Shown: piece by piece, positions 4,013 through 32,710 of the stretch
Layout of the letters: each line of letters starts with the position of its first letter
Numbering within the stretch: position 1 is the stretch's first letter
Assembly: GCA_963722075.1 (NCBI GenBank)
Contig: CAVRJM010000001.1
Coordinates: 981,898-1,045,897, forward strand
Source of the DNA: Candidatus Babeliales bacterium
GTDB taxonomy: Bacteria; Babelota; Babeliae; Babelales; JANWKD01
Reading direction: 5' to 3'
DNA: 64,000 nt
The notes under the pieces: generated by a model
Told to the model about the DNA's origin: nothing
The model's database searches: none
The model's input: only the letters and a program-made list of their open reading frames with translations
Made by a program: the position numbers and the translations under genes

Positions 4013-4017
4013 AAATT

Positions 4018-5529: not shown

Positions 5530-5718
5530 TTTTTCCCTTCTTATATGAAATCCCTAATTTTTATATTTAAGATAATAAAATCCATTTTATCGGTGCAATG
5601 GTTTTAACTTGAACTTTACAGCACAAGTTTAGTAAATATAAGAATAACTGACGGTAACCTAGATTCTGTTGAGTTTTGGAAATAACTTTAAAATTTAAAG
5701 TTATATGCTTGGAAAAAA

Positions 5719-5905
5719 GCCGTCGTCACGAGCCGAAGGCGTGGTGATCAAGGCTATGCCGGACAAGGGCGTGGGGACTGTGTCCGCCGTAGCTTGTAGC
5801 GAAGGCTGGATCCAGGCTAAAATTTTCAAGGGAACCTGGATTGCTTCGACAAGCTCGCAACGACAAATTGTTGTTTTCGTCGTCATTACGAGCACAGACT
5901 GTGCA
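5719..5905. repeat. Composite GC-rich repeat island (several nested repeat units)
   Basis: Abrupt GC-rich patch containing cgtcgtcacgag...cgtggtgatc, gaaggctggatccagg, cctggattgcttcgacaagctcgcaacgac and cgtcattacgag. The overlapping track ORFs 5701..5895(-) and 5705..5944(+) are translations of these repeats. Confidence 0.75.
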
Positions 5906-5947
5906 TCTAGATTTTTTATAATTTATTATTTATATAAGGAGTAAATA

Positions 5948-6646
5948 ATGTGGTATGAGAGAATAATAAAAGTAACTCTAGTAATCAGCAGCTTTTTGCT
6001 GTTTACTCAATTTAGTTCACAAACTTCAGTTGATGGCAAAGAGAAGCCTTCCCTTAATGTATATGGATTACTAACTGATACCAGTAATCATAGTTATCGA
6101 GTAGAAAATGTTACCATTGCTGGTCGGTTCAGTGATATAGCCGTTTATCAAAAACCAATAAGTCCTGATTTAAATCCTGATATTAATACTACCAAATTGG
6201 ATCTTTGTGAAATCAGTGAAATAAGAATAGAAGCACCAAAAGTAGTTCAATTTAACAAACGAGATTATATAGAAATTACCGTCATCTCTAATGACACTCG
6301 AAAAACGCAAAATCGATATATTATTGAAAAATTAAAAAAGCTTTTTTGCGATGAAGTAAATGAAGCAGGTCCTATAGAAAAAGAATTGTCGTTTCTGGCG
6401 GTACAACGATTGCAAATTCAAGGGTGCAAAAAACAAGAAGAAGAATCGCGGGTATATAAATTACAACCACAGTCAATTGATCAAAAGACGATTGATTATA
6501 CCATAACCAAAACAGAAGCATTAATTAAAGAACTGCAAGAAAAAGCTGATCAATTACCTAATGATGCCAATGATGGTTCATTAAAATCACAAATGCTTCA
6601 GCTTTTGACTGAGTTACAAGCTACCTTTAAAAAGTGGTTTGCATAG
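5948..6646 (+). CDS. Secreted protein of unknown function
   Basis: 232-aa ORF with an N-terminal hydrophobic signal sequence and AAGGAG-like SD (ataaggagtaaataATG). No recognisable domain. Confidence 0.6.
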   Translation: MWYERIIKVTLVISSFLLFTQFSSQTSVDGKEKPSLNVYGLLTDTSNHSYRVENVTIAGRFSDIAVYQKPISPDLNPDINTTKLDLCEISEIRIEAPKVVQFNKRDYIEITVISNDTRKTQNRYIIEKLKKLFCDEVNEAGPIEKELSFLAVQRLQIQGCKKQEEESRVYKLQPQSIDQKTIDYTITKTEALIKELQEKADQLPNDANDGSLKSQMLQLLTELQATFKKWFA

Positions 6647-6689
6647 GGTGAATGATTAGTCGTATAATGGAAAAAGGAAAATTTAATTA

Positions 6690-6818
6690 CTGGATCCTTA
6701 CGCTATGCTCAGGATGACATTTAGAAAATTTATATTTATACTTGATCATTTTAATTTATTATAAGTGAGATTGTTATTCACTGGTCATCCTGAGGAACAA
6801 AGTGACGCAAGGATCCAG
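6690..6818. repeat. MITE-like element, GGATCC-type terminal inverted repeats
   Basis: ctggatccttacgctatgctcaggatgac (left) and gtcatcctgaggaacaaagtgacgcaaggatccag (right) are inverted copies flanking an AT-rich core of about 65 bp. Confidence 0.8.
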
Positions 6819-6842
6819 TTATAAAAATAAAAGGAAAATACC

Positions 6843-7163
6843 ATGGCTATTGATATAACAAAAGAAAATTTCGAAAAAGAAATCGAAAAATCAACCTTAC
6901 CCGTAGTACTTGATGTATATGCCACCTGGTGTGGACCCTGCCTTCAAATGAAACCTATTTTTGAAGAATTGTCGCAAGAATACGGCAATAAATATAAATT
7001 TGCACAATTAAACGTTGATGAAGGACGCGAATTAGCAATAAATTATGGTGTTACCTCAATTCCTACTTTTATCTTCATTAAAAATAAAGAAATTGTAGGT
7101 AAAGAAATGGGCTATATGAGTAAAGACCAGCTTTTAAAAAAAATAACTGAATATCTCAAATAA
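6843..7163 (+). CDS. trxA: Thioredoxin
   Basis: 106 aa with the WCGPC active site and the typical thioredoxin length and context (VLDVYATWCGPCLQMKP). Confidence 0.95.
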   Translation: MAIDITKENFEKEIEKSTLPVVLDVYATWCGPCLQMKPIFEELSQEYGNKYKFAQLNVDEGRELAINYGVTSIPTFIFIKNKEIVGKEMGYMSKDQLLKKITEYLK

Positions 7164-7686
7164 GCTTTACAATATCATAGGCAAATTCAGCTGCGTAGGT
7201 GGGGCCTTGAGCGGTAACTACTCTTCCATCAGTAACAACACCTGTTGTGTTATCATAAATTACACCGTGCTGATCATAAATCGCTTTTAGCTTGTTATCA
7301 CCATCCCATCCCGTAGCTGTTTTGCTTACTAATGCGCCAGCTTTTGCCAAAATACGTGTTGCTATACAAATAGCTGCCACTACTTTTTCTGCCATCACTG
7401 CTTGCTGAATAAATCGATAGCTTGCATCGGTATCTAATGCTTCTAATGCTCCCGGACCTCCAATAAGAATAACTGCTTCAAATTGCAATGGATCACTATG
7501 AGCTATATCAGCATCCACCGAAGCTGATGATTTATCATGAGCAATGGCAGTTCCTTTCTTATTACTGATGGTAACTACCTGAAATCCCGCCTCTTGGATT
7601 ATCTCTTTTGTAATGGCGTATTCAACTTGCTGGTACCCATTATGCGCTATTACTATCGCTACTTTTTTTGCCATTTTTTTTGCCAT
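7156..7686 (-). CDS. DJ-1/PfpI family protein
   Basis: 176 aa with the nucleophile-elbow motif VVAAICIATRILAKAG, GGPGA and the type-1 glutamine amidotransferase-like layout. Confidence 0.8.
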   Translation of the reverse strand: MAKKMAKKVAIVIAHNGYQQVEYAITKEIIQEAGFQVVTISNKKGTAIAHDKSSASVDADIAHSDPLQFEAVILIGGPGALEALDTDASYRFIQQAVMAEKVVAAICIATRILAKAGALVSKTATGWDGDNKLKAIYDQHGVIYDNTTGVVTDGRVVTAQGPTYAAEFAYDIVKLI

Positions 7687-7778
7687 AATCGCTTCCTTTT
7701 ATGTGCCAAACGTTATTTACAAAGATTAATATCTCATTTAAACTCTGCAGGTATAATTATAACTAAGGAACAATAAGC

Positions 7779-8072
7779 ATGGTAAAAAAGATTTTTTTAC
7801 TCATATTACTTATTAATTCATTTGTACCTTTTACCTACACTCAAGAAGAAACTATAGCTGAATTAATAAGTTCAAATAAAGAAAATAATGAAACTGCTCC
7901 CTATGATCATCTTGATTACTTAGCAGACCACGAACCTGTTGAAGTAGTAAAACCACATCCGCTTCCCCATTGGTTAAAATCTTTTTTATTTGGCGCATTC
8001 ATACGTTTTTTTAATACGGTTGAATTTTTTAAAAAAAGCTGGAAAAAAATACAGTTAAATTATAAAAAATAA
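7779..8072 (+). CDS. Small secreted protein of unknown function
   Basis: 97-aa ORF with a signal peptide. Its stop overlaps the rsmE start (ATAATG junction). Confidence 0.5.
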   Translation: MVKKIFLLILLINSFVPFTYTQEETIAELISSNKENNETAPYDHLDYLADHEPVEVVKPHPLPHWLKSFLFGAFIRFFNTVEFFKKSWKKIQLNYKK

Positions 8073-8833
8073 TGGAATCATCATCAAAACATCTGTTTGC
8101 TCTTTTTTATCAGGCTTCTATAGATTGGCATTCAATAAGCCCTCTCAGTACAGTAACTATAACTGATGAATCGATTGTTCACCGAGCGTACCATGTTTTG
8201 CGCCTTGGGCCAGATGATCAAATTATTCTTTTTAATAAGCAGTATCATTTTTTACTAACGCTTATCACTCTTTCAAAAAAAGAAATAAAGGCGACCATCA
8301 CGCAAGCAAATAAAAATACCGTATATCAACCAAGTATTACGGTTGCTTTACCGCTCTTAAAACGAGATGCACTCACCTATGCACTTGATGGATTAACTCA
8401 ACTTGGCATTAATACCATACAATTGATTACAACGCAAAAGAGCCAAAGCCAATTTTCCCAGCAAAAAGATATGCAACGACTCTACAAAATTATCTATGCT
8501 GCTGCTGAGCAATCAAAAAATTTTTCATTTCCTGAGCTTATAAAACCAGTACCATTATCTGATTTTATTACCGATTATAATACGCAAAAAAAACGTATTA
8601 TCTTTGGTGATCCCGCTGGCTTACCAGCACATGAAGTAATAAGCTCACTGCAACAAAATAATACAACTCCCATAACTATTATTATGGGACCAGAAGGAGA
8701 CTTAACCGTAAATGAAAAAAGCTTATTAAAACAGCATTCGGTTATGTATATGGCATTAACCCCTACCATTTTACGAGCAGAACAAGCGATTTGCTTAGCA
8801 AGTGGTATGGTACGCGCGCTCATGCAACCATAG
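8072..8833 (+). CDS. rsmE: 16S rRNA (uracil1498-N3)-methyltransferase RsmE
   Basis: N-terminal PUA-like HRAYHVLRL, and a C-terminal SPOUT knot with IIMGPEGDLTVNE and LTPTILRAEQA. Confidence 0.85.
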   Translation: MESSSKHLFALFYQASIDWHSISPLSTVTITDESIVHRAYHVLRLGPDDQIILFNKQYHFLLTLITLSKKEIKATITQANKNTVYQPSITVALPLLKRDALTYALDGLTQLGINTIQLITTQKSQSQFSQQKDMQRLYKIIYAAAEQSKNFSFPELIKPVPLSDFITDYNTQKKRIIFGDPAGLPAHEVISSLQQNNTTPITIIMGPEGDLTVNEKSLLKQHSVMYMALTPTILRAEQAICLASGMVRALMQP

Positions 8834-9821
8834 AAAAATTATCAATCAGTTTTTTATCTTGATACATTTGTATATCAAGTGCAGGAAAATAACTATCTTT
8901 ATACGTTAACAACTGTTCATTTGGTTTTATAACAAGCCTGCTATCACCAAGTGAGATAACAACAGATCGAGCGCCAATTCGTTGCAATAGACCGCCATTT
9001 TTTTCTAGATGATAACGAAGCAGCCCATATTTTCTTAATAATACTGGATCGCTTTGCCCCTGCCAAAGAACCAAGTAAATACGTTTCACCTGAGCAAGCT
9101 TGCATAATTGTGCACAATACTCAAAAGCAAGGATGCTTGGCTTTGTTATTATTAAATGATCAATAGTCGTTGATCCAAAATATTGAGTAAGCTCTCTTAG
9201 TAAGGTGTATTCAATCCAATTTTTTATAGTACCTCTAAGAGTAATTGCCGGATTAATAACGACCAATTGCTTATTATGTTGTAGCGCAATAATATCGCCT
9301 TTGCCACAAGGAATTTTTGTTACCCGCAATGAGTAAATTGGAAACAGCTTTAAAACCATTATTATAAACATTAGCGCCACCAGCAAACAAATGATTCTAT
9401 ATAATCGTGATAATGGCTTTAGGTGTAAAATCAAAAATCCCAATGCTGCAATACTTATAAGAACAAACAATGGCGGTTTTGCAAACCCTATAAGCCAACC
9501 CCGCGTTGCATATGTCATAAAGAACTGCCACCACTCTGCAAAATAGCTTAAACAACTGATTACAAAATCATTAGGCACATTGCAAAGCTCCAAGAAAAAA
9601 ATTGCACAACAAAGTAATAAAAAAATCGATAAAAATGGTGCAAATACTATATTCCCAATACAAGCCATGAGCGATATGGGCAATCCCCACGCAATTAAAA
9701 TTGGAAACGATAAAAATAATAAAAAAAGCTGTAATTCAATGCCTTGAGCAATCCGATTACCAATACGATAGCAAACGGATAATAGTTTTGTATGTATCAT
9801 AGTAGTTAAAAAATTGTTCAT
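8820..9821 (-). CDS. ComEC/Rec2-related membrane protein, short form
   Basis: TM-rich N-half with the competence-domain pattern QLFLLFLSFPILIAWGLPISLMACIGNIVFAPFLS. The C-half resembles the ComEC beta-lactamase-like region (PCGKGDIIALQ, IDHLIITKP) but lacks the HxHxDH metal motif. It is less than half the usual ComEC length. Confidence 0.5.
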   Translation of the reverse strand: MNNFLTTMIHTKLLSVCYRIGNRIAQGIELQLFLLFLSFPILIAWGLPISLMACIGNIVFAPFLSIFLLLCCAIFFLELCNVPNDFVISCLSYFAEWWQFFMTYATRGWLIGFAKPPLFVLISIAALGFLILHLKPLSRLYRIICLLVALMFIIMVLKLFPIYSLRVTKIPCGKGDIIALQHNKQLVVINPAITLRGTIKNWIEYTLLRELTQYFGSTTIDHLIITKPSILAFEYCAQLCKLAQVKRIYLVLWQGQSDPVLLRKYGLLRYHLEKNGGLLQRIGARSVVISLGDSRLVIKPNEQLLTYKDSYFPALDIQMYQDKKLIDNFSMVA

Positions 9822-9907
9822 GTTATTATATTAATAATAACAATAATCAAAATTTTAACTACAAAAATTGACAAGAGATATTTTTACTAGAGCTATACCA
9901 TTATCGT

Positions 9908-10735
9908 TCAATGCATCAAAAAAAGTGCTTCAAAAAATTCTCTATTAGTAGGATTTGATAATTTTAATGGATGATTAAAATAAGAATTAACGGGGTATTT
10001 TTCAAGCGAAAATCCATATACATTTTCGGTTTTTAACCATAACCAATCTTTTTTTAAGCTAATACAGCTTGTTATTGTTGGTATCGCTAATTCTAAAAAT
10101 ACTTTATTGTTAAAAAATAGTTGCGCTAAATCTATAAAATCATTCCTATAGCGAGCGGGCAAATAAAGAACATCTGAAAAAAAGGTACATACATGATTGC
10201 GTCCCCAATTATTTTCCAATGTTTTTTTATATTTTTTTGAAACATTTTTTAACGATTTATTCATCGCATTATAACCAAAACCACTTTGCCACCAGTACCA
10301 ATTTAATGCTTTGGATCCTTTAGATAGATCAATGGCAGTCCCATGATAATCATTATTTACAAAATACAAAAATTTCATTTCTGGTACCCAGATTTTGCTC
10401 GTATCAAGATTTTCGAACAACCATGCATGCGCAACACAATCATCCATTAAAAAAAAGTACCCATCAAAAGAAGGATATTTTTTCATCGCATCAGCAAGCG
10501 CTATGTACCCAAAATAGCCACGCGTATGATTCACTTGATGTACTTCAGGATGGTTGCTCGGTCCGTAAAAAACAATATTAGGGAAATAATTACCGTATAT
10601 TTTTTTTAAAAGGGGAATCGATTCATAATGTTGATGATTATAATTTATGATTAATAAAATATTTTTAAAATCAGCAGCAAATCCCTGAGAAATAAAAAAG
10701 AATAATAGAAATAACAAGAAATTATACCTATTCAT
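9908..10735 (-). CDS. Signal-anchored protein, possible glycosyltransferase-like (function unknown)
   Basis: ORF with a hydrophobic N-terminus (MNRYNFLLFLLFFFISQGFA). I moved the start to the second ATG, which has GAAAGG 7 nt upstream. FFLMDDC could be a DxD-type motif. It lies next to the glycan genes. Confidence 0.5.
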   Translation of the reverse strand: MNRYNFLLFLLFFFISQGFAADFKNILLIINYNHQHYESIPLLKKIYGNYFPNIVFYGPSNHPEVHQVNHTRGYFGYIALADAMKKYPSFDGYFFLMDDCVAHAWLFENLDTSKIWVPEMKFLYFVNNDYHGTAIDLSKGSKALNWYWWQSGFGYNAMNKSLKNVSKKYKKTLENNWGRNHVCTFFSDVLYLPARYRNDFIDLAQLFFNNKVFLELAIPTITSCISLKKDWLWLKTENVYGFSLEKYPVNSYFNHPLKLSNPTNREFFEALFLMH

Positions 10736-11038
10736 AGTATACCTTTCATTTTTATTAAGAATAATCTTAAAGATCATAACAACTTTGAGGATTATTTTTC
10801 AATAAAAAATTATTGGTATATTTATTTATTTTAATATTTACAATTATAAATATTAAAATTCTTAGTTTACTGTTGGCATTTGATAATTAAGGACCTTGAG
10901 ATCATCCAGCCATGCATCCATGAGCGCACGCTCATTTGTTTTGAAAAAATCATGCACTATCATAAGATCAATTAGTTCTTTAATGCGATCATCAAACTGC
11001 TTTTGTTCTGAACGCCAATCACATAAAAGCGCTAATAA

Positions 11039-11938
11039 TTATTCAGTTTTCAAATATAAATCAAGTTCATCGATAAAATCATGCAATAGATTATGCAAAT
11101 TTCTGTATTGAGCAACCGTCGGCTTTGAAAAACAGAGCGAAGCATTCAGGTCCCATAATAAGCGTTGTACCCAATAGCCACGCCAAATATCACATACCCT
11201 AAACGATGTTGTTATTGGTAATACTAAACCCCAAAAAGCATGGTAATAAAAAATAGTATTCTGTGAATTAAAAGGGCTCATAGTATACGCAGCTAAACAA
11301 ATTGGATCATGATCTTCGAATATGACTTCCTCTTGCCGCGTTAATCTAAAAATTGCATCCACATCAGGATCTATATTAGCCAAAGCTTGCTGGATGGGGA
11401 TATGCGCAGATTGCATGGCTACTGAATAATTGAAAGGTGCGGTGATTTTACTTAATGGGTAACCACGTGGCCACACGTTCGCTTGCCCAAAAAGTGCATA
11501 CGGATTAATAGCCGTTTCTACAGAAGAATATTGTAAAAGAGTAACGTGCTCAGGATAGCAATTTATATGCTCATCAATAAGCAAATTATCATCATCTGTT
11601 TCATAAATTATTTTGGCACCATGCTCTATAGCATATAAATAGCCTATATTTTTTCTACAATAATGATTCCATGGTAACAATGGAATAATTTTATATGGAA
11701 GCTGTTCTTGAACTTCTACGCTCAGAAAATCGCAATTATCTAAATGCCAATTTGAGGGCGTCTTTTTATCGGCAACCACCACCAAGCGCCATTCTCTCAA
11801 ACGTGCAAGCTTTTTTAATGTTGCAGTGGGATAATTGATAGTGGTTACTACAATCCACTTATCATGAGCTTGCACGCCTCCATAATAAAAAAAAATAACT
11901 ACAATAAGAAAATGCTCATTTGCCCAATACTTCATCAC
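11039..11938 (-). CDS. STELLO/DUF288-like glycosyltransferase-like protein (ends at an in-frame TAA; see findings)
   Basis: WIVVTTINYPT...WRLVVVADKKTP..W, RKNIGYLYAIEHGAKIIYETDDDN and WPRGYP are the blocks I associate with the eukaryotic STELLO/DUF288 family. N-terminal signal anchor. Confidence 0.6.
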   Translation of the reverse strand: MMKYWANEHFLIVVIFFYYGGVQAHDKWIVVTTINYPTATLKKLARLREWRLVVVADKKTPSNWHLDNCDFLSVEVQEQLPYKIIPLLPWNHYCRKNIGYLYAIEHGAKIIYETDDDNLLIDEHINCYPEHVTLLQYSSVETAINPYALFGQANVWPRGYPLSKITAPFNYSVAMQSAHIPIQQALANIDPDVDAIFRLTRQEEVIFEDHDPICLAAYTMSPFNSQNTIFYYHAFWGLVLPITTSFRVCDIWRGYWVQRLLWDLNASLCFSKPTVAQYRNLHNLLHDFIDELDLYLKTE

Positions 11939-12119
11939 TTCCTTTTTTTAACAATGTTTTATGAATTTATAAGTATCCCAACAGAAAATGTATTATGAAC
12001 AAATAATGTTATAACTATTACTTCCCTTTAGGATTTGAAAAAACAAAATAATTCACTAAAATGGTAGCAACCTTATCCCTATAATTTCAATAAATCCACG
12101 CAAGGAGATATTACACGGT

Positions 12120-13121
12120 ATGAAAGAAAAGATTTCTATTGTAATACCTGTTTATAATGAAGAAAATAATTTAATTCCTATGTATTCCATTATTAATGAG
12201 ATTGTTCAAAAAGTTGCTGATTATTTTAGTTATGAACTGATTTTAGTTAACGACGGCAGCAAGGATAATTCTTGGTCTATTATTAAAAAATTAGCCGCTG
12301 CAGATCCAGCAATTAAAGCAATTAATTTTAGTAGAAACTTTGGGCATCAAATTGCACTCACTGCTGGCTATGATATAGCAACCGGTGATGCTATTATCAC
12401 TATGGATGCAGATTTACAAGATCCACCTCATCTTATATTGGAGATGATTGAATCATGGAAAAAAGGAAATTTAATTGTATATGCACGGCGAGCCAACCGA
12501 AGCGATACTTTTTTAAAAAAATATACCGCACTCCTTTATTATAAATTTTTAGATTATATAGCTGACGTTAAAATACCACGTAACGTAGGTGATTTTCGCT
12601 TAATTGATAAAAAGGTGTTACAAACGCTAAAAGAATGTCCAGAAAAATCACGCTACTTGCGCGGCATGGTTGCTTGGACTGGCTTTAAACATGATTTTAT
12701 AGATTTCAATAGATCAAATAGACATGCAGGAACTACTGGATATACATGGAATAAAATGTTTAAGCTTGCATTTGATGGGCTTACGGCATTTTCATTATTT
12801 CCACTTAAAATTGCAGCCTTTGTTGGATTATTTGTTATGGTAACAGGAAGCCTTATGTTTAGTTATATCACCATTGATGCACTTATTTTTGGCATCGATT
12901 ACCCACTTTTCAAATGGCTCGTTACTATAATTTATATTTTTATGGGCTTACAATTTATTCTTTTATGGTTAGTAGGTGAATATATTGGTAGAATTCATGA
13001 GCAACAAAAAAATAGACCTTTATATTTAGTTGATGAATTAGTAAATTTTGAAAAAGCAATTTCGATATCAGATTCCATCATTGCTGCAAATGACCCCAAA
13101 GTAAAAGATCTTCATTATTGA
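12120..13121 (+). CDS. GT2 polyprenyl-phosphate glycosyltransferase (GtrB/ArnC-like), copy a
   Basis: ISIVIPVYNEENNL, LVNDGSKDNSW, FSRNFGHQIALTAGY and TMDADLQDPP, plus two C-terminal TM helices. Confidence 0.85.
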   Translation: MKEKISIVIPVYNEENNLIPMYSIINEIVQKVADYFSYELILVNDGSKDNSWSIIKKLAAADPAIKAINFSRNFGHQIALTAGYDIATGDAIITMDADLQDPPHLILEMIESWKKGNLIVYARRANRSDTFLKKYTALLYYKFLDYIADVKIPRNVGDFRLIDKKVLQTLKECPEKSRYLRGMVAWTGFKHDFIDFNRSNRHAGTTGYTWNKMFKLAFDGLTAFSLFPLKIAAFVGLFVMVTGSLMFSYITIDALIFGIDYPLFKWLVTIIYIFMGLQFILLWLVGEYIGRIHEQQKNRPLYLVDELVNFEKAISISDSIIAANDPKVKDLHY

Positions 13122-13209
13122 TTACGAGTTGAGTTTTTTATTGATTTTTTTAGAGTAATTAAAAATATTATTTCAAAAGAAAGAATTATACAATTCAAAG
13201 GAAATTATA

Positions 13210-13899
13210 ATGAAAGCAGAATTCGATTCATATATAAAAGATTACCGCAAAGATCTTGATAATCACCTTGCATTATCGGGAGAAAATAGTAGTTTTTTTG
13301 CTGAGTATAAAGCATTAAAACTCAAGGAATGGCTGGGTAAGCAAGCGTTAACTGCACAAAAAATATTAGATTTTGGTTGCGGTGACGGGCTAATGACTAA
13401 CTTTGTGAGCGTTCACCTTCCCAACGCTCAACTCTATGGCGTTGATCCTTCCCCAGATAGCATTAAAGCTGCGCAAAAAAATTATCCCCATTTACGCCTA
13501 AGTGTCAGCTATGATGAACGGTATGATTTAGATTTTCCCACCGCTTATTTTGATATTATATTTGCTGCAGGAGCGTTTCATCATATTCAATTTAAGCATC
13601 ATAACGGCTTTTATAAAGAACTATTTAGAATCTTAAAACCTAATGGCGTATTAGTTACTTTTGAGCTTAACCCACTTAATCCTCTTACTTATAGAACCTT
13701 TAAAAAAAATCCTATTGATCAACATGCCACCATGCTCAAACCATGGTATGCATATCAATTAGGTAAAGAATGGGCTCGTAAACGTTCATTAAAATTTTAC
13801 TGTTTTTACCCTCATGCACTTCGATGGTTGCGTTTTTCAGAAAAATATTTAACCAAAATACCAGCAGGTGCATTATATGCTACTATTTTCACCAAATAA
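13210..13899 (+). CDS. Class I SAM-dependent methyltransferase
   Basis: Motif I ILDFGCGDGLM, post-I YGVDPS, and motif III LKPNGVLV. Confidence 0.8.
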   Translation: MKAEFDSYIKDYRKDLDNHLALSGENSSFFAEYKALKLKEWLGKQALTAQKILDFGCGDGLMTNFVSVHLPNAQLYGVDPSPDSIKAAQKNYPHLRLSVSYDERYDLDFPTAYFDIIFAAGAFHHIQFKHHNGFYKELFRILKPNGVLVTFELNPLNPLTYRTFKKNPIDQHATMLKPWYAYQLGKEWARKRSLKFYCFYPHALRWLRFSEKYLTKIPAGALYATIFTK

Positions 13900-13932
13900 A
13901 GATCGTTATTTTGCACATAAAGGGAGCAATTA

Positions 13933-15117
13933 ATGAATATCATGCTGTGCCGGCTTAATAATCTTCAACATGCGCTTGCAGGCCTTATTAAAACAGGCGT
14001 TCCGCTTATTTTTTATGATGGTCAAAAACTAGTTCCTTTTGATGCAAGTGATGATATAGGCATATATTATTTCATTCCCCGGCTTGCTTGCTTTTTTAAT
14101 ATATCCCTTGAACAGAGTATCGCGTTTTTCTTTAATACCATGCTAGCGTGTTCATTTATAGCAGCCTTTGTGGGATTTTGGTGTTTATATCGTACTCTTT
14201 TTTCAAGAATTTTCATCACCGCTGAGCTATCGCTCCTTCTTTTTTTTATTATTCGGACTAAAACTTATGATGTATACCTAACCTATATCATGGCAAATTT
14301 ATGTTTGATCCCATTATTTTTATATCTGTTTTTTAAAAAAAATAATTCAGCTATATTTGATATCTTTTTAATAATCGGCGGTGTAATAATAGGATCTTTA
14401 CATTATATAAGAGCTTTTTCAGCCCTGGGTGCCGGTGCATTTATCGTCTGTATGATCATATTAAATCACCAATTTTCTGGCAAAAAAAAGTCATTTTTAT
14501 TAAGTTGCTTACTAGGTGGATTACTTCTTTCAGTTTGTTATTTTCAAAACATTATATATTCATATCAAAGCGCTGCTAAAAAAATATTTACCAACTACTC
14601 GGACTTTCCTATACACCATCCTTTTTGGCATTCTATTTATATAGGCTTTGGTTTTTTAAAATTTTTAAATGACGATAATATTGAATATGCTGATCAATGT
14701 GGCACTAATAAAGTGCAACAGCCTATAACTGCACATAATTTCAATGAATATGAAAATTATTTAAAAAATGAAGTCGCTCTTCTATGGAAAAAGAAGAAGG
14801 TATTTTTTTTATTTACTATTTTTGCAAAAATAGGCGTCTTAATTTTGTTTTTCCTTTTTTTTACAAATATAGGCATAATTCATCTATTTTTTACCAAATC
14901 ATGGGCCATTGAATGTTCTTTTATAGCATCATTTATATGCAATAGCTTACCTTGTCTTTTAGCAGTACCTTGTTTTGCTTATGGCGTTGGATTCATTACC
15001 CTGAGCACGATATATTGTATTGTGAGTATTTGCACTATATCAAGGCAAGAGCTCGTAGGAAAATTATTTACGTTAAAAAAAATAATGGGTCGAAACATTT
15101 TCTTTAACAATGCATAA
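13933..15117 (+). CDS. Polytopic membrane protein, candidate GT-C-like glycosyltransferase, copy a
   Basis: About 11 hydrophobic segments. Paralogous to 16035..17261 (shared FDASDDIGIYYFIPRL / SFDDVGIFILIPKL and HHPFWHSIYIGFGFLKFLNDDNIEYADQCG / KHPFWHTVYAGLGLLRWKNDDNIEFDDGCV). Its end overlaps the start of the next GT2 gene by 8 nt. Confidence 0.6.
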   Translation: MNIMLCRLNNLQHALAGLIKTGVPLIFYDGQKLVPFDASDDIGIYYFIPRLACFFNISLEQSIAFFFNTMLACSFIAAFVGFWCLYRTLFSRIFITAELSLLLFFIIRTKTYDVYLTYIMANLCLIPLFLYLFFKKNNSAIFDIFLIIGGVIIGSLHYIRAFSALGAGAFIVCMIILNHQFSGKKKSFLLSCLLGGLLLSVCYFQNIIYSYQSAAKKIFTNYSDFPIHHPFWHSIYIGFGFLKFLNDDNIEYADQCGTNKVQQPITAHNFNEYENYLKNEVALLWKKKKVFFLFTIFAKIGVLILFFLFFTNIGIIHLFFTKSWAIECSFIASFICNSLPCLLAVPCFAYGVGFITLSTIYCIVSICTISRQELVGKLFTLKKIMGRNIFFNNA

Positions 15118-16045
15118 AAAATTAATTTCAATCATATTACCTGTTTATAATGAGCAGCATAATATTCCATTGGTATATAAAGAAATTATCAAGCATGTAA
15201 AAGATACCACTTATAACTTTGAAATTATTTTTATTAATGATGGTAGTAAGGATAAGTCATGGGAAACCATTAAACAACGTGCCTCATCTGATTCTCAAGT
15301 AAAGGGGGTTAATTTTATAAGAAATTTTGGTCATCAAGCTGCTTTAATGGCTGGGTATCATTATGCTTCTGGAGAGGCTATTATTTCAATGGATACCGAT
15401 CTACAACATCCTCCTGAAATGATTCCTTCCATGATTATTGCTTGGCAGCAAGGTTTTGACATTGTATATATTCAGAATGTAAAACGTAATGATAATTTTT
15501 TGAAAAAAATCACAGCTGCGTGTTATTACAAATTCCTTGAAAAATCAGCCCATATAAAAACACCACGCAATGTAGCCGATTTTAGATTGATTGATAAAAA
15601 AGTGAGAGATATTGTTATTACCTTACCCGAGAAAGCATTATACCTGCGCGGTCTAATAGCATGGGTAGGTTTCTCATATACTATTATTCCTTGTATATTT
15701 GCTAAACGGCATGCTGGTCAACCAGGATATACTTGGCATAAAATGATCAAACTCGCCCTGGATGGTATTTTTGGATTTTGCACTTCTCCTTTTAAAATGT
15801 TGTACTTTATTTCTTTATTTATTATAAATAGCGGGTTAACGTGTCTCATATATCATATAGTATATCCATACCCTATGATGCACTATTCCTCTTTAACAGT
15901 AATTATAACCGTAACGTATATGCTATTGGGGATACAGTTTTTTCTCATTGGGCTATTATATCATCACTTAAGTATTTTTTATCAAGCAATAAAAAAACGT
16001 CCTACCTATATTATTACTGATTTACACAGCCATTTTAAGAATTAA
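15110..16045 (+). CDS. GT2 polyprenyl-phosphate glycosyltransferase (GtrB/ArnC-like), copy b
   Basis: ISIILPVYNEQHNI, FINDGSKDKSW, IRNFGHQAALMAGY, SMDTDLQHPP and C-terminal TM helices. Paralogue of 12120..13121. Confidence 0.85.
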   Translation: MHKKLISIILPVYNEQHNIPLVYKEIIKHVKDTTYNFEIIFINDGSKDKSWETIKQRASSDSQVKGVNFIRNFGHQAALMAGYHYASGEAIISMDTDLQHPPEMIPSMIIAWQQGFDIVYIQNVKRNDNFLKKITAACYYKFLEKSAHIKTPRNVADFRLIDKKVRDIVITLPEKALYLRGLIAWVGFSYTIIPCIFAKRHAGQPGYTWHKMIKLALDGIFGFCTSPFKMLYFISLFIINSGLTCLIYHIVYPYPMMHYSSLTVIITVTYMLLGIQFFLIGLLYHHLSIFYQAIKKRPTYIITDLHSHFKN

Positions 16046-17261
16046 GAAATTGAAGATTACGCACTCTTTTTTTAAATGCACGCTTACTATAGTTAATTAA
16101 GAAGGCTTGATTCATTTCCAAATAATGACTAAGGCTTATTATGCCATATAGTATACATAAGGTTATAAATGATAATGTATAATTACTAAATGGTAATGCG
16201 ATAAATGGAAAAACAATACTCGTCAAAATAGCCATTATAAATGATAATTCAAGAGTAAATGATTTAGGACAATAATACGCAGCAAGCAACCCAATGTTGG
16301 CAAAAAATAATAGATAAAAAAGTAAAATGCCTATTTTTGCAAATAGTGTTGCTGCAATAAAAAATGGTTTAGTTTTAATTAAATGAATAACTTCATCCTT
16401 AACTATTTTTTCATACTCATCCATTTGAAATAAGGAAATACTCGGATCCTTTTTTTCAACCATGCGAAACACACAACCATCATCAAATTCGATATTATCG
16501 TCATTTTTCCATCGTAATAAACCCAATCCAGCATATACCGTATGCCAGAATGGATGCTTTGTTGGGAAACAAGCAAGATCACTAAAATGGGTTCGCGCAT
16601 ATTCGTCGTATTTACGCATTTGATTATTAAAGTAATACCATGGTACTAAAGATGAACATAGTAACGCCCCTAAAAGAATGGCTTTTTGCTTCATTAACAA
16701 CCGCGTTGATAAAAATATAGCCATCATTATAAAAACCCAAACTGCTAATCCTGAATGAGAACGAATATAATGAAAAGAGCTCAAAGTAAATCCTGATAAC
16801 AAAAGAACGCCAAGGAGTTTATTAAATGCCTCACTTCTTTCAAGATAATATAAAAATGGCGGGATGATACCAATAACCATTGCAAAATAAGCAATATACA
16901 CATCTACCGCGGCTACTTTAGTTACAAAAAGGAGAAAAAACATACCCATCGTTGTTGCAACACGTGCACTCAAAGAACGATACATTAATAATAAATAAAA
17001 AAAACCTATGACAAATGCCATATATTTTATGCCATAGAAAAAAACATCAATACCTTGTTGCACTGAAAGATTACACCAATTGATTAATTTGGGTATCAAA
17101 ATAAAAATACCAACATCATCAAAAGAGCCGGTCCAACGTTGAGTATTCCCGGTAAAGGGAATAAATGAAGCACCATCAAAACCTATTAAGGGTACATTAA
17201 TTTTACCAAATGCCTGCACTATATAATCGATCATTATATACCGTGAAATGAGAATATTCAT
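16035..17261 (-). CDS. Polytopic membrane protein, candidate GT-C-like glycosyltransferase, copy b
   Basis: 408 aa, multi-TM, paralogue of 13933..15117 (see the motifs there). Confidence 0.6.
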   Translation of the reverse strand: MNILISRYIMIDYIVQAFGKINVPLIGFDGASFIPFTGNTQRWTGSFDDVGIFILIPKLINWCNLSVQQGIDVFFYGIKYMAFVIGFFYLLLMYRSLSARVATTMGMFFLLFVTKVAAVDVYIAYFAMVIGIIPPFLYYLERSEAFNKLLGVLLLSGFTLSSFHYIRSHSGLAVWVFIMMAIFLSTRLLMKQKAILLGALLCSSLVPWYYFNNQMRKYDEYARTHFSDLACFPTKHPFWHTVYAGLGLLRWKNDDNIEFDDGCVFRMVEKKDPSISLFQMDEYEKIVKDEVIHLIKTKPFFIAATLFAKIGILLFYLLFFANIGLLAAYYCPKSFTLELSFIMAILTSIVFPFIALPFSNYTLSFITLCILYGIISLSHYLEMNQAFLINYSKRAFKKRVRNLQFLNS

Positions 17262-17276
17262 ACCATTCCTTTTTGA

Positions 17277-17981
17277 TTATATTTTATACAGCTCATTGAA
17301 ATTTAAATTAAATAATGACTTAATACTATACAAAAACCGTAGATAACCATTATGTTCTTTCTTGGGCTTTGGTTTACTATTCATCGTTTGAACTTTTTCT
17401 TTTAAACGATCGAATTTTTCTTTATACGATCTAACAATAGTAACACGATCCGTTACCACCATATTTTCTTCATTACGCGTTAAACCCCCTTGTGTGGTGT
17501 TTGCTGAACCAAACATCACCAGCGCTTTATTATATAAGTTCATACTAAAATGCCACACTTTATTATGCATTATAGAAAATGATTTTCTATAAACATACAC
17601 TTTAATGCCGTGCTTTTTTAACTGAGTAATTTTCTCATATTTGCTTTCTAAACAACTTTTATCAGTTATAATTTCTATACTAACACCGCGTCGGCGCGCG
17701 CTAACTAATGCATCAACAATATCTGGATCTGTCAATTGATAAACCGCCGCTCTAATTGCTCTTTTTTCGTGATGAATTAACCCAATGAGCACTTGTTTGA
17801 GTGGATCATCAGGTACAAAAAATACTCCTTCTATTTTATTAAGCGGTTTTATTAACTGGGCTTTTGCATAATTCATACATTCAACGATATCGTAATTAAC
17901 TTGCGTAGAGGTTAAAAAGAAATAACCAAAAATTAATAAAAAAGAAAGGGCTGTAGTAATAAAGGTTGAGTTATCAGTCAT
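17277..17981 (-). CDS. Phospholipase D / Nuc-like single-HKD family protein with N-terminal TM anchor
   Basis: HKD-type motif HNKVWHF...[17 protein letters not shown] and Nuc-like size (234 aa). Its start overlaps the gmd stop by 4 nt. Confidence 0.7.
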
Positions 17982-19144
17982 TTATTCGCCCAATGCTCCG
18001 TAATGGCATAACTTACTGGATGATTTAAACCGTTGTAAGCCCGTTCCAGCTTTTTACAATCTTCTTCAACCATTAACCTAACCAGTTCATTAAATGTTGT
18101 TTGTGGGCGCCAGTGCAATCCATGCCATGCTTTTTGGGCATCTCCTAAAAGATAATCAACTTCTGTAGGCCTAAAATAAAGTGGATCAATAAGCACTAAT
18201 GGTTTTTTCGTTTGCGCATCAACTCCTTGCTCATGAATACCTTCACCCTGCCATTCAATAGTAATACCAATATGAGCAAATGCTTGTTCAACAAATTCAC
18301 GCACCGAATGGGCCTGACCGGTAGCAATAACATAATCATCCGGAACCTCTTGTTGCAACATTAACCACATAGCTTCTACATATTCTTTTGCGTATCCCCA
18401 ATCGCGTTTGGCGTCCAAATTGCCTAGATACAATTTTTCTTGCAACCCATATTTTATATGAGCTACCGCTCGCGTAATTTTACGCGTTACGAATGTTTCC
18501 CCACGGATTGGTGATTCATGATTAAACAAAATACCATTGCAGGCAAATATACCGTACGCTTCTCTATAATTTACGGTAATCCAATAGGCATATAATTTTG
18601 CAATAGCATACGGAGAACATGGATGAAACGGTGTTAATTCATTTTGCGGTGGAAGAGAACTGCCATACATTTCACTGGTGGAAGCTTGATAAAATTTAAC
18701 CTTCTTGGTTAATCCCAATAATCTAATTGCTTCAAGAATGCGTAACGTCCCAATGGCATCAGCATTTGCCGTATATTCGGGCGTTTCAAATGATACTGCC
18801 ACATGACTTTGCGCCGCTAAATTATAAATCTCATCAGGCTGTGCCTCCTGAATGATACGAATAACATTAGTGCTATCGGTTAAATCTCCATAATGTAAAA
18901 TAAAATTTCGCTTATCGAAATCATGCATATCTTGATATAAATGATCAATGCGCGCTGTATTAAGTGACGATGATCTTCTTTTTATGCCATGTACTATATA
19001 CCCTTTTTTGAGTAAAAATTCTGCTAAATAGGCACCGTCTTGACCAGTTATACCAGTAATTAAAGCAACTTTTGGATTTTCGACTTCTGACCAGATTGGA
19101 TTATAGAGAAATAATGCATATGTTAACCATAGAATTTTTTTCAT
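17978..19144 (-). CDS. gmd: GDP-mannose 4,6-dehydratase with ~24-aa hydrophobic N-terminal extension
   Basis: [34 protein letters not shown], the SDR catalytic context (STSEMYG, YAIAKLY) and [17 protein letters not shown] are typical Gmd blocks. Strong SD GAAGGAAG lies upstream of the first ATG. Confidence 0.9.
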
Positions 19145-32628: not shown

Positions 32629-32668
32629 GAAAACAGGCTTGAATAATTTCAAGCCTGTTTTCTTATTA
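32629..32668 (+). terminator. Rho-independent terminator
   Basis: gaaaacaggctt / aagcctgttttc 12-bp stem with a 10-nt loop and T-rich tail. It lies inside the track's TTG-extended galE ORF. Confidence 0.7.
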
Positions 32669-32710
32669 ATAAATTTTTTATACTGTAACTCAAAAATAAT
32701 AAGGAGTTAC

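Follow-up and report, generated by a model that had tools for sequence, protein, structure and literature searches.

Glycosylation systems with Gtr-type logic have three components, a GtrB-type synthase, a GT-C transferase and a flippase (PMC11127046). In the O-antigen glucosylation systems of Salmonella, Shigella and phages these are the undecaprenyl-phosphate-glucose synthase GtrB, a serotype-specific GT-C enzyme of the GtrC type and the flippase GtrA. Related streptococcal systems pair PgfS with PgfM1/PgfM2 and GacI with GacL, or employ the Scc side-chain GT-Cs; in Pgf and other GtrB-dependent systems, one type of synthase serves one or more polytopic GT-C partners (PMC12041528, PMC11754754). 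GT66 enzymes use diphosphate-linked oligosaccharides as donors, and Wzy-type polymerases, the ECA polymerase and the O-antigen ligase, which make up CAZy families GT119-GT135, include proteins that are also counted as GT-C in the broad sense, namely the Wzy-type polymerases (PMC10920833). GT136, represented by ORF12 of Citrobacter youngae, is a new CAZy GT-C family without sequence similarity to existing families that was recognised by its AlphaFold fold and its gene context (PMC11127046).

We analysed a 64-kb stretch of DNA (the window) from a probable Babeliales bacterium, a host that itself sets the locus apart from the Gtr systems. The window holds a glycan island at 9908-19144, and an ORF check bore out the order, coordinates and strands that a sequence-only reading had given for its nine genes. 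Our analysis makes it probable that two lipid-carrier glycosylation modules, parallel to each other and operating outside the cytoplasm, are encoded here, with a GT-C-like family that lacks annotation as the transferase part. As in Gtr systems, a GtrB-type GT2 adjoins a polytopic protein with a predicted GT-C-like fold, and the modules are duplicated and variable, like gtr operons. Unlike Gtr systems, the island has a methyltransferase gene inserted between synthase and transferase, no GtrA was found in the window, and the membrane protein lacks both a hydrophobic TM1 and detectable similarity to E. coli GtrS/YfdI (hhalign < 1%).

The first gene of module 1 encodes GT2a (12120..13121, plus strand) and module 2 contains GT2b (15110..16045, plus strand). 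The gene for GT2b overlaps membrane gene a by 8 nt (15110-15117), as had been noted, and converges with membrane gene b, with which it shares 11 nt (16035-16045). Both GT2s carry the RNFGHQ and D(A/T)DLQxPP motifs on which their earlier assignment to polyprenyl-phosphate sugar transferases of the GtrB/ArnC type relied, and profile searches agree with that assignment. Glycos_transf_2 was matched by GT2a at E 3.1e-32 and by GT2b at E 8.5e-31 (Pfam), PgfS was the best NCBIfam match of each over the full length (E 2.5e-69 and 1.5e-64, respectively), and ArnC, from the lipid A aminoarabinose pathway, was also matched over the full length (E 1.1e-50 and 4.3e-44). GT2a aligned through residues 4-311 with the GtrB protein sll0501 (PDB 5EKP, E 1.7e-82), a structure with which GT2b also aligns along its full length. 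A C-terminal pair of hydrophobic helices is found in GT2a (220-252 and 262-289) and in GT2b (229-252 and 260-290), and the two proteins are 46% identical (BLASTP, E 8e-99). Strong homology thus shows both to be full-length enzymes of the GtrB/ArnC/PgfS type, with a predicted cytoplasmic GT-A domain and a C-terminal TM hairpin. They differ from PgfS in scoring far below its equivalog cutoff (234 against 500 bits), and the ArnC score of GT2a is below cutoff too. Further differences from the Pgf systems are that the membrane partners have no detectable sequence family in common and that the host of the island is diderm, as judged by TamB and a weak BamD/YfiO-like match in the window.

Membrane protein a (13933..15117, plus strand) and membrane protein b (16035..17261, minus strand) are 35% identical over 379 residues (BLASTP, E 8e-71), which places the proposed paralogy of these two polytopic proteins of about 400 aa far beyond chance. 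The motifs described in them, FDASDDIG / SFDDVG and HPFWH(S/T), are present. Neither protein matched Pfam, NCBIfam or PDB sequences, and there was no PMT_2, ArnT or STT3 family signal, the last of these being a point of difference from AglB and PglB. They are nevertheless part of a family that forms ~1,650 clusters at 50% identity; its members, nearly all of them in MAGs, come from about 17 named bacterial lineages. Protein a, of about 390 aa, has nine hydrophobic TM helices, a predicted N-terminal extracytoplasmic segment with D40-D41 and a predicted extracytoplasmic loop of 81 aa bearing W232-H233, N246 and D254. Across 61 aligned members, position 40 is Asp in 59 and position 41 is Asp or Glu in 60, so the DD motif is near-invariant. 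The complete set of invariant or near-invariant residues, in the numbering of protein a, is D40, D41, G43, P49, R160, W232, H233, N246, D254, K299 and Y350, with R160 and K299 invariant. By alignment their counterparts in protein b, of which the syntenic locus L052 contains a separate orthologue, include D48-D49, R167, W239-H240, N253, D261 and K309.

AlphaFold produced confident models of both proteins (a, pLDDT 94.0 and pTM 0.91; b, pLDDT 95.2 and pTM 0.93), and every PDB structure matched by Foldseek with a probability above 0.6, for either model, was a GT-C enzyme. For model a these were AglB (0.99), ArnT (0.99) and AftA (0.98), then Pmt4, PglB and Pmt1; for model b they were AglB (1.00), ArnT (0.92), Pmt1 (0.87), ALG3 (0.69) and DPY19 (0.66). 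AftB was also among the GT-C structures retrieved. The likeness is at the level of the fold: TM-scores of 0.36-0.52 are borderline, the best E values of 0.047-0.096 are not significant, and profile-sequence HH comparison of the family to ArnT and GtrS gave probabilities below 1%, the same as for unrelated transporters. ArnT (GT83, 5F15) gave the best TM-score for model a, with a TMq of 0.52 over 384 columns, although identity was only 9%. E. coli ArnT is also larger, with 550 aa against about 390, and has 13 TM helices and a periplasmic domain in the 5F15 structure, compared with nine helices here; in addition, there are no ArnA, ArnB, ArnD or ArnE/F genes. AglB was the top match for both models and, like PglB (GT66; 3WAJ and 5OGL), has an acidic motif in its first extracytoplasmic segment, as do the proteins of the island. 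The low TMt against AglB (0.22-0.25) reflects the size of that protein, which is twice as long and includes a large periplasmic domain at its C-terminus. For the present family, as a candidate new GT-C family, GT136 is a precedent, but ORF12 has more TM helices (11), carries a carbohydrate-binding module at its C-terminus and relies for its donor on a PRPP-dependent synthase and a MATE flippase (PMC11127046).

The acidic motif had been placed in the first extracytoplasmic loop. Its position outside the cytoplasm is upheld by prediction, but it lies in an N-terminal segment and not in a TM1-TM2 loop because the proteins of the window have no hydrophobic TM1. Longer homologues have a signal peptide where classical GT-C enzymes have TM1: of 14 sequences with N-terminal extensions, 13 have a single hydrophobic segment of signal-peptide type ahead of the DD pair. 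The positive-inside rule gives the same orientation, the short loops assigned to the cytoplasm carrying 0.97-2.85 K/R each over the 61 members and the outside loops 0.08-0.33, the invariant R160 excepted. One member, P0083, runs from the family domain into a C-terminal GT4 domain without a TM-grade segment in between, an arrangement that fits a cytoplasmic C-terminus; this is supportive and not decisive, because in P0109 a hydrophobic stretch separates the family domain from GT4. The GT-C reading of the membrane proteins is thus supported: high-probability matches were to GT-C enzymes only, with no transporter-like fold, the DD pair is conserved and its predicted location is not cytoplasmic. 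We conclude that proteins a and b are probably members of a large, previously unannotated GT-C-like family.

The pairing of this family with GtrB-type GT2s is also supported by synteny. Among 50 related loci, which represent about 17 named lineages, 25 have a full-length GtrB-type GT2 no more than 6 kb from a family member, and in 14 it is within 1 kb; in the other half none was found within 6 kb. Two to three tandem copies of the family occur in 18 of the 50. In 16 loci a family member has a homologous methyltransferase gene (E < 1e-15) at a distance of at most 300 bp. The order GT2-methyltransferase-family is seen again in MAGs of Babeliales, Verrucomicrobia and Campylobacter, and Pseudomonadota MAGs show methyltransferase-GT2-family.

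A different setting, in which the family lies inside Wzx-type polysaccharide clusters, raises the question of whether its members are Wzy-type polymerases or ligases (BP-Pol / O-Lig-like) that use undecaprenyl-diphosphate-linked oligosaccharides and not undecaprenyl-phosphate monosaccharides as donors. Loci L051, L053, L054 and L056 are Wzx-dependent clusters (BY-kinase-like ATPase, Polysacc_synt Wzx, GT4, AsnB-like and heparinase II/III-like genes) with no GtrB-type GT2 in view, and L055 mixes the two contexts. The architecture of the family, polytopic with about 390 aa, conserved residues on the outer face and a long conserved extracytoplasmic loop towards the C-terminus with conserved Arg and His, resembles that of the BP-Pol clans (PMC10920833), and the fused member P0109 has a weak EpsG match (E 0.0021). 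However, none of the 61 aligned members gave a Wzy_C, O-ag_pol_Wzy or EpsG signal, nor did the family match the Wzy group by sequence or profile. Although structures of WaaL (7TPG) and RodA (6BAR) are cited as solved (PMC10920833), no WaaL or SEDS protein was among the best 50 Foldseek matches listed for either model, where only GT-C_A-type and ALG3/DPY19 structures score. Tandem paralogues at the frequency given above are atypical for Wzy, and the coupling to GtrB-type GT2s is tight and often overlapping. Genes of the Wzy pathway, among them those for Wzx, PCP and an initiating phosphoglycosyltransferase, are absent from the window. Even in L051 and L054 another polytopic, unannotated protein of ~500 aa could be the polymerase, and in the tree the members from Wzx clusters fall together with an Actinomycetota pair that is coupled directly to GtrB. 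A Wzy-type role is weakened by these observations and we regard it as rather unlikely.

Since a three-component system requires a flippase (PMC11127046) and a search of the 64-kb window yielded no candidate of the GtrA, MATE, Wzx or SMR type, the family protein, as the sole polytopic partner of each GT2, might instead be a carrier for the sugars that the GT2s load, an analogue of GtrA, ArnE/F or a MATE flippase. The earlier observation that GtrA is missing held for all window ORFs scanned. Flippases of GtrB/GT-C pairs are, however, often encoded elsewhere in the genome, as with GtcA for CsbB/YfhO. The models resemble glycosyltransferases, while matches to MATE, MFS, MurJ and ABC proteins had TM-scores of about 0.13 and probabilities of at most 0.1, and those to transporters and GPCRs at large likewise scored about 0.13. 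Most of the strictly conserved polar residues (DD, R160, WH, N246, D254) are predicted to be extracytoplasmic, as in GT-C sites, and a flippase role appears very improbable. We give still less credence to a coincidental neighbourhood in which the proteins have some non-glycan function, such as scaffold or permease. Some automated source annotations do name family members 'MFS family permease', but MFS structures do not match the models, GtrB-type GT2s, methyltransferases, NDP-sugar pathways, Wzx and GT4 are co-located with the family repeatedly in about 17 named lineages, and two members carry a fused GT4 glycosyltransferase.

In the preferred reading of two GT-C-dependent modules, GT2a and GT2b work at the cytoplasmic face of the inner membrane, where, as their strong homology shows, they transfer a monosaccharide unit from its nucleotide-activated form to undecaprenyl phosphate, and the lipid-linked sugar would be flipped by a flippase encoded outside the window. 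At the periplasmic face, as fold, topology, conservation and synteny suggest, proteins a and b would pass the sugar from the polyprenyl-phosphate donor to an acceptor, using a predicted active site composed of the DD pair, R160, the W232-H233 / N246 / D254 loop and K299. A mechanistic precedent exists in the three-component systems of the Gtr type and in those of GT136 (PMC11127046). Since polysaccharide clusters house family members at other loci, a surface glycan resembling, for instance, LPS, O-antigen or exopolysaccharide is the most likely acceptor.

Among the accessory genes, the class-I SAM-dependent methyltransferase (13210..13899, plus strand; Methyltransf_25/11/12, E 1e-17 to 1e-19) has only generic class-I matches in the PDB. 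It is a recurrent partner of the family, directly upstream of members in several phyla, and not an incidental neighbour; it may modify the sugar at the nucleotide-linked or lipid-linked stage. The minus-strand unit starts with gmd (17978..19144), whose product is a GDP-mannose 4,6-dehydratase (TIGR01472, 602 bits against a cutoff of 415; GDP_Man_Dehyd in Pfam, E 2e-153). Gmd would supply a sugar derived from GDP-4-keto-6-deoxymannose and so may feed the pathway a precursor of the GDP-6-deoxyhexose type. There is no fcl or other reductase partner for Gmd in the window, where the only other SDR found is GalE (32639-33721). Between gmd, which it overlaps by the 4 nt reported earlier (17978-17981), and membrane gene b lies a gene for a single-HKD, Nuc/NucT-like protein of the PLD family (17277..17981, minus strand; PLDc_2, E 5.6e-26). 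Its best NCBIfam match, NucT, is below cutoff (E 2.1e-13) and it has an N-terminal hydrophobic segment (residues 5-26). Homologues adjoin gmd in L052 and a GT2b homologue in L013; the part of this protein in the glycan pathway is putative.

The two remaining genes, both on the minus strand, had been described as eukaryote-like, a label that does not suit genes so widespread in bacteria. The first was correctly assigned to the STELLO/DUF288 family, but the called ORF (11039-11938) ends early at an in-frame TAA (11041-11039), a codon that we read directly. Homology continues past this stop for 54 more in-frame codons, to the TAA at 10864-10862 that closes the frame, and tblastn with P0202 runs straight through the stop at 75% identity, giving a gene of 10862..11938 with a signal-peptide-like N-terminus. 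The called ORF had 3,869 homologous matches; nearly all of those listed carry a precomputed PF03385 and have 350-365 aa, and their named sources are Babeliales or other bacteria. The second gene (9908..10777) encodes a short, divergent STELLO-related protein (Pfam STELLO, E 0.0047, below threshold), also with a signal-peptide-like N-terminus. Its family of 36 homologous clusters, about half with a precomputed PF03385, is small and centred on Dependentiae; the sources named are Dependentiae, Parachlamydiaceae, Silvanigrellaceae and a 'Limnocylindria' MAG, and homologues are present at loci L001 and L013.

Lipid-carrier glycosylation modules built around a family of GT-C-like transferases offer the best explanation of the island, and we consider this reading probable. 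The nine open reading frames of the island have the coordinates and strands that the sequence-only reading gave them: two STELLO-like genes (ORF 9908, 9908-10777, and ORF 11039, 11039-11938, both minus strand), GT2a (12120..13121, plus), the SAM methyltransferase gene MT (13210..13899, plus), membrane gene a (13933..15117, plus), GT2b (15110..16045, plus), membrane gene b (16035..17261, minus), a PLD gene (17277..17981, minus) and gmd (17978..19144, minus). The reported overlaps were borne out, membrane gene a sharing 8 nt with GT2b and the PLD gene 4 nt with gmd; GT2b and membrane gene b are convergent and overlap by 11 nt. The G+C content of the island, at 31-34%, is slightly lower than that of its surroundings. 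Both GT2 proteins are of the GtrB/ArnC type, as had been proposed: each aligns end to end with PgfS (E 2.5e-69 for GT2a, 1.5e-64 for GT2b) and with ArnC, and each carries the two C-terminal hydrophobic helices (TM hairpin) that are typical of this enzyme class. GT2a matches the GtrB crystal structure (Synechocystis sll0501, 5EKP) over residues 4-311 with an E value of 1.7e-82, and is 46% identical to GT2b. The products of the membrane genes, proteins a and b, are indeed paralogues, with 35% identity across 379 residues (E 8e-71). Family scans identify MT as a generic class-I SAM enzyme and the PLD protein as Nuc-like, with a single HKD motif and a hydrophobic segment at its N-terminus. Gmd scores 602.2 bits over residues 25-365 against the curated TIGR01472 equivalog, whose cutoff is 415 bits.

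Proteins a and b belong to a large family that lacks annotation. Neither has a Pfam or NCBIfam match at E <= 0.1, and 61 aligned members scanned singly against Pfam at E <= 1 revealed no recurrent family. Searches of PDB chains with the membrane proteins, by phmmer and by profile, found nothing relevant, a 40-aa match to PsbX being dismissed as chance; tblastn with protein a gave no match among annotated plasmids and phages. A word-indexed search through 5.8 billion proteins yielded 62 clusters; all measure 360-475 aa, none has a Pfam domain, and the only names they bear are 'hypothetical protein' or the automated 'MFS family permease'. An exhaustive profile search of 1.84 billion representatives extended the family to 1,651 clusters at E <= 1e-3, of which 680 reach E <= 1e-30. 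Among GTDB species representatives 47 loci were found, all in MAGs; Babeliales are the most numerous, and the others are from Actinomycetota, several Pseudomonadota, Nitrospinaceae, Anaerolineales, Elusimicrobia, the Chlorobi group, Obscuribacter, Terriglobia/Acidobacteriota, Verrucomicrobia, Chlamydiae, Patescibacteria, Campylobacter, Gemmatimonadales, Flavobacteriales and Nitrospirae. The family was undescribed in the literature that we searched on Babeliales/Dependentiae glycosyltransferases and on GtrB-methyltransferase-GT-C modules, a search that cannot be exhaustive. Alignment of the family to E. coli K-12 ArnT, YfdI/GtrS, WaaL, WzyE, WbbH/Wzy and RodA with hhalign gave probabilities below 1% throughout, as did the controls WzxE, RfbX and ThrP, so these single-sequence targets are too weak to discriminate.

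AlphaFold2 with family alignments produced models of very high confidence for protein a (pLDDT 94.0, pTM 0.91) and protein b (pLDDT 95.2, pTM 0.93). By hydropathy and the AlphaFold2 secondary structure, protein a has nine hydrophobic helices, all within residues 59-368, and protein b has the same layout. The GT-C fold class has a polytopic membrane domain of about 7-13 TM helices (PMC11127046, PMC10920833), a range that includes the nine-helix domain of proteins a and b. When the model of protein a was compared with the PDB using Foldseek, it retrieved AglB (probability 0.99, TMq 0.45), AftA (0.98, 0.47) and ArnT 5F15 (0.99, 0.52 over 384 columns), then Pmt4, PglB, AftB, Pmt1/2 and a GPI-transamidase subunit (8IMX chain U); the model of protein b retrieved AglB (1.00), ArnT (0.92), Pmt1 (0.87), ALG3 (0.69), DPY19 (0.66) and AftB. 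For the two models together the GT-C matches have probabilities of 0.6-1.0 and TMq values of 0.25-0.52, with weak statistics (E 0.047-1.1, the best being 0.047-0.096; identity 9-15%; TM about 0.4-0.5). The sequence-only reading had likened these proteins to GT-C enzymes, and the AlphaFold models retrieve such enzymes in both cases; the predicted likeness is one of fold and not of family. A Foldseek search of the viral BFVD library for phage Gtr-type GT-C or phage Wzy proteins gave matches with probabilities of 0.30 at most.

In the numbering of protein a, G43, P49, R160, W232, H233, G238, N246, D254, K299, G314, P346 and Y350 are invariant among 61 members; the acidic pair D40-D41 (DD) is near-invariant, with Asp in 59/61 at the former position and in 56/61 at the latter, where a further 4/61 have Glu. 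An alignment of 93 sequences shows the same pattern, D40 and D41 both being at least 90% conserved. Topology was assessed by taking the AlphaFold2 helices as segments and applying the positive-inside rule over the 61 members. Mean K/R counts are 0.97 (residues 86-88), 1.0 (136-139), 2.85 (178-186) and 1.36 (320-323) for the loops assigned to the cytoplasm and 4.2 for the C-terminal tail, as against 0.33 (110-115) and 0.08 (344-347) for outside loops; in the loop at 160-164 the invariant R160 is the sole charge. This pattern puts the DD segment, R160 and an 81-residue loop containing W232-H233, N246 and D254 on the extracytoplasmic side. Homologues with an N-terminal extension of 50-130 residues give independent support, since 13 of 14 have exactly one hydrophobic, signal-peptide-like segment ahead of DD. 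K/R residues come before this segment, and a polar linker comes after it in the sequences inspected (for example ...VVVPAHA|QT in the homologue P0083). Two lines of topological evidence therefore support an extracytoplasmic position of the acidic motif.

The family departs from the usual GT-C layout at its N-terminus. In GT-C enzymes TM helix 1 comes before the catalytic loop, and the window proteins have no hydrophobic segment ahead of DD. Their helix 5-21 is amphipathic (mean Kyte-Doolittle -0.46, about 2 K/R and 1.6 D/E), so a hydrophobic TM1 is missing and the catalytic-type segment would be an N-tail that is exported; longer relatives have a signal peptide or anchor in the place of TM1. 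Two homologues, P0083 (989 aa) and P0109 (1029 aa), are natural fusions in which a signal peptide and the family domain are followed by a linker of ~110-160 aa and a GT4 (GT-B) domain. In these proteins a Leloir transferase on the cytoplasmic side and a putative periplasmic GT-C would be joined in a single chain. P0083 has no TM-grade segment between the family domain and GT4, an architecture consistent with nine crossings and a cytoplasmic C-terminus, GT4 being necessarily cytoplasmic. P0109 has a hydrophobic stretch at 577-609 in the corresponding position, so that the fusions are taken as supportive of this topology and not as a clean marker of it.

Gene context was surveyed in 50 non-redundant related loci by comparing every translated ORF with the window proteins and the family profile, accepting a GtrB-type GT2 at E < 1e-30 where the alignment reached the C-terminal helices, within flanks of roughly 6 kb, and an MT homologue at E < 1e-15. 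A full-length GtrB-type GT2 lies within ~6 kb in 25/50 loci, which supports the proposed pairing, and within 1 kb in 14/50. An MT homologue is present in 20/50, in 16/50 within 300 bp and mostly directly upstream of the family gene; one or other of the two partners occurs in 31/50, and 18/50 have two or three tandem family copies. Genomes usually hold few GtrB-type genes, so the frequency of co-location appears to be far above chance. The order GT2-MT-family is found in Babeliales (L001, L004, L011, L012, L035, L052), Verrucomicrobia (L030), an unclassified MAG (L031) and Campylobacter MAGs (L042, L046), and the order MT-GT2-family in Pseudomonadota MAGs (L009, L010). A pair of family genes in an Actinomycetota MAG comes after an NDP-sugar pathway (nucleotidyltransferase, dehydratase, epimerase/reductase and DegT aminotransferase) and a GtrB-type GT2. 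The 25 loci, together with the 8-nt overlap with GT2b, lend indirect support to the suggestion that proteins a and b use a polyprenyl-phosphate-linked donor.

The syntenic relative L052 has the flanks seen in the window (TamB, T2SS ATPase, gmd and PLD) and three family copies where the window has two, from which it follows that the locus varies in content among related Babeliales, much in the manner of an O-antigen locus. This synteny and the window's nearest relatives indicate Babeliales/Dependentiae as its source. All Babeliales copies form one clade in a rough NJ tree, and L052 has a separate orthologue for each of proteins a and b; the duplication that produced them is therefore older than the split between the two genomes. 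Between its flanks, at 3573-12901, L052 also carries two GT2-MT pairs and a GT10 fucosyltransferase-family gene. Between Babeliales, Verrucomicrobia and Chlamydiae MAGs (the window against L030, L031, L033 and L036) GT2a and MT are far better conserved than the adjacent membrane protein, with phmmer E values of ~1e-146 to 1e-149 for the GT2 in the four loci, 1e-84 to 1e-92 for MT in L030 and L031 and ~1e-41 to 1e-45 for the membrane protein. Such a difference would fit either divergence in acceptor specificity around a conserved donor or horizontal transfer between host-sharing bacteria.

A second genomic context is the main argument for regarding the membrane proteins as Wzy-type polymerases (BP-Pol) or O-antigen ligases. 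In L051 (6802-12053), L053 (6838-13269), L054 (5659-11017) and L056 (6779-12059) a fused ADH/GFO-IDH-MocA oxidoreductase is followed by the family and an AsnB-like amidotransferase, an arrangement seen in part in L002 (1-1366). Next in the first four loci come a methyltransferase and Wzx and, where the locus extends far enough, a heparinase II/III-like protein and GT4. Upstream, L051, L053 and L054 have a BY-kinase-like ATPase and a probable chain-length regulator, and no GtrB-type GT2 is in view in these three loci or in L056. L055 combines both contexts, and Wzx is present in L055 and L056. Wzy-type polymerases, the ECA polymerase, SEDS proteins and O-antigen ligase are, moreover, GT-C proteins in the broad sense, with WaaL 7TPG and RodA 6BAR as solved structures of the group (PMC10920833); neither WaaL nor RodA/FtsW structures are among the 50 best PDB matches listed for either model. 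Several observations weigh against a polymerase or ligase. A different polytopic protein of ~500 aa in L051 and L054 could be the polymerase, the family members of the Wzx clusters group in the rough NJ tree with the directly GtrB-coupled Actinomycetota pair, and the catalytic-type residues are invariant in both contexts. The partners of a Wzx/Wzy system, which are partly present around distant family members, are absent from the window, whose ORFs include no Wzx, PCP/chain-length regulator or initiating phosphoglycosyltransferase. On balance we consider it unlikely that proteins a and b are polymerases or ligases. Foldseek matches outside the GT-C class (GPCRs, MATE, MFS, ABC and MurJ) had probabilities of 0.21 or less and TM values of about 0.13; that the membrane proteins are flippases seems very improbable, and a membrane function unrelated to glycans is harder still to credit.

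In the loci of the second context the oxidoreductase is an ADH_zinc_N + GFO_IDH_MocA fusion of ~700-730 aa, one or two family genes are present and the AsnB-like protein has ~630 aa; the same fused oxidoreductase heads the GtrB-coupled Actinomycetota locus. The ~500-aa protein (L051 12933-14438 and L054 11034-12551, both minus strand) is conserved in these clusters, has 8-9 hydrophobic peaks and no Pfam or family-profile match, and is a candidate Wzy or further membrane glycosyltransferase.

According to the model that we favour, of glycosylation modules with a GT-C-like transferase, GT2a and GT2b, as homology shows, make polyprenyl-phosphate-linked monosaccharides at the cytoplasmic face of the membrane, and MT would modify that sugar. 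Methylation of a glycan already bound to its lipid has a precedent in the archaeal protein AglP, which acts on one linked to dolichol phosphate. The donor would then be exported by a flippase that is either novel or encoded outside the scanned ORFs of the window, and proteins a and b would pass the sugar to an extracytoplasmic acceptor. The DD pair would be the acidic element of the site, either catalytic or binding a metal, and R160, K299 and H233 would serve for the lipid phosphate. The position of gmd suggests that it is co-transcribed with the PLD gene and membrane gene b and that the sugar derives from a GDP-6-deoxyhexose; the GT10 gene of L052 fits fucose-type chemistry. No partner reductase for Gmd was found in the window, where the sole other SDR is GalE. 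A surface polysaccharide or LPS-like molecule is the most likely acceptor because of the recurrent polysaccharide-cluster setting and the envelope of the host bacterium, which we take to be diderm from the presence in the window of TamB and a weak BamD/YfiO-like match.

The logic of such a module resembles that of the Gtr, Arn, Pgf and GT136-type systems (PMC11127046), although the transferase lies outside their sequence families as judged from Pfam, NCBIfam, PDB sequences and HH comparison with ArnT and GtrS. It differs from them too in the small size of the transferase and its lack of TM1, in the built-in methyltransferase and in having no linked flippase. Of the three components of a Gtr-type system the GtrB-type synthase is present, as GT2a and GT2b, but a dedicated flippase is not: among window ORFs of at least 90 aa we detected no GtrA, MATE, SMR or Wzx-like protein encoded with the module, in agreement with the sequence-only reading, which had seen no GtrA-like flippase. 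Several of these ORFs have no family match, so that a novel flippase may be among them. The family is probably a new GT-C family within established lipid-carrier-dependent extracytoplasmic glycosylation. A fuller proposal is that it represents a minimal new GT-C class (~390 aa, nine TM helices, no TM1, the catalytic segment exported as an N-tail or behind a signal peptide) and a new CAZy family, acting in a conserved four-part pathway of GtrB-type synthase, SAM methyltransferase working on the lipid-linked sugar, flipping step and GT-C to install methylated sugars on the surface glycans of many uncultivated phyla, perhaps even with no flippase devoted to it; taken as a whole, we regard this as doubtful.

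If the GT-C assignment is correct, ~1,650 clusters that now bear the name 'hypothetical protein' or the wrong label "MFS permease" turn into candidates for periplasmic glycosyltransferases, spanning about 17 named lineages that include Babeliales, Chlamydiae, Verrucomicrobia, Chlorobi, Acidobacteria and Campylobacter MAGs. As happened recently with GT136, they would constitute a new GT-C family in CAZy, and they would widen the architectural range of GT-C enzymes to small members without TM1. New GT-C families have been recognised repeatedly of late and the overall mechanism would not surprise a specialist; the family is nonetheless large, wholly unannotated and directly testable. The GT2-methyltransferase-GT-C triad is a compact three-gene unit that could be expressed in E. 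coli, which would make the question of methylation before transfer addressable. Babeliales are thought to be obligate intracellular parasites of protists, and a copy number that varies while the flanks are conserved points to a surface glycan that is diversifying and bears on interaction with the host.

Elsewhere in the window, genes for two ankyrin-repeat proteins (41867-43636 and 56061-56924, both minus strand), a Fic/DOC protein (53267-53665, plus), a Bax1-inhibitor-family protein (4831-5529, minus) and an RPE65-family carotenoid oxygenase (907-2469, plus) are of host-associated type and consistent with an intracellular lifestyle. GalE, a UDP-glucose 4-epimerase encoded 13 kb away from the island (32639-33721, plus; TIGR01179, 380 bits against a cutoff of 262), might supply one GT2 with UDP-Gal or UDP-Glc. 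A 131-aa ORF at 31772-32167 (minus) has only the HTH domain of an IS630-type transposase and is probably a transposase fragment. Residues 1-24 of Gmd, outside the TIGR01472 alignment, are moderately hydrophobic and may be a membrane-tethering extension or the result of a mis-called start; the L052 homologue is also long (404 aa).

The description of the two upstream genes as eukaryote-like is not supported by database comparison. A search with ORF 11039 gave 3,869 matches, of which nearly all those listed carry PF03385 and the named ones are bacterial; ORF 9908 is a short, divergent STELLO relative mostly confined to Dependentiae. The window STELLO-like ORFs score 19.9 and 16.2 bits against a PF03385 gathering cutoff of 27.8, and the domain is carried by close homologues of ORF 11039 (57-77% identity) and by about half of the homologues of ORF 9908. 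The STELLO gene to which ORF 11039 belongs extends over 10862-11938 (minus) and is interrupted at 11041-11039 by an in-frame TAA in place of the Lys or Ser codon of its relatives; past it, homology (75% identity to the homologue P0202) runs for 54 more codons in frame to a closing TAA at 10864-10862. A 298-aa product is called from the same stretch in the Logan assembly of run ERR10755947 (L003). The internal TAA could reflect a recent nonsense mutation or a truncation, or it could be read through. We ruled out that ORFs 11039 and 9908 are halves of one split gene: they have no mutual similarity, L013 has them in the opposite order, and the C-terminal part that ORF 11039 lacks follows in frame straight after its own TAA. 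Both ORFs begin with signal-peptide-like sequences (...SQGFA|AD in ORF 9908, ...GGVQA|HD in ORF 11039) and both products are predicted to be of GT-A type. An exported nucleotide-sugar-type glycosyltransferase is unusual in a bacterium; these proteins could be secreted to act as effectors in the host, or they could work in the periplasm with another donor.
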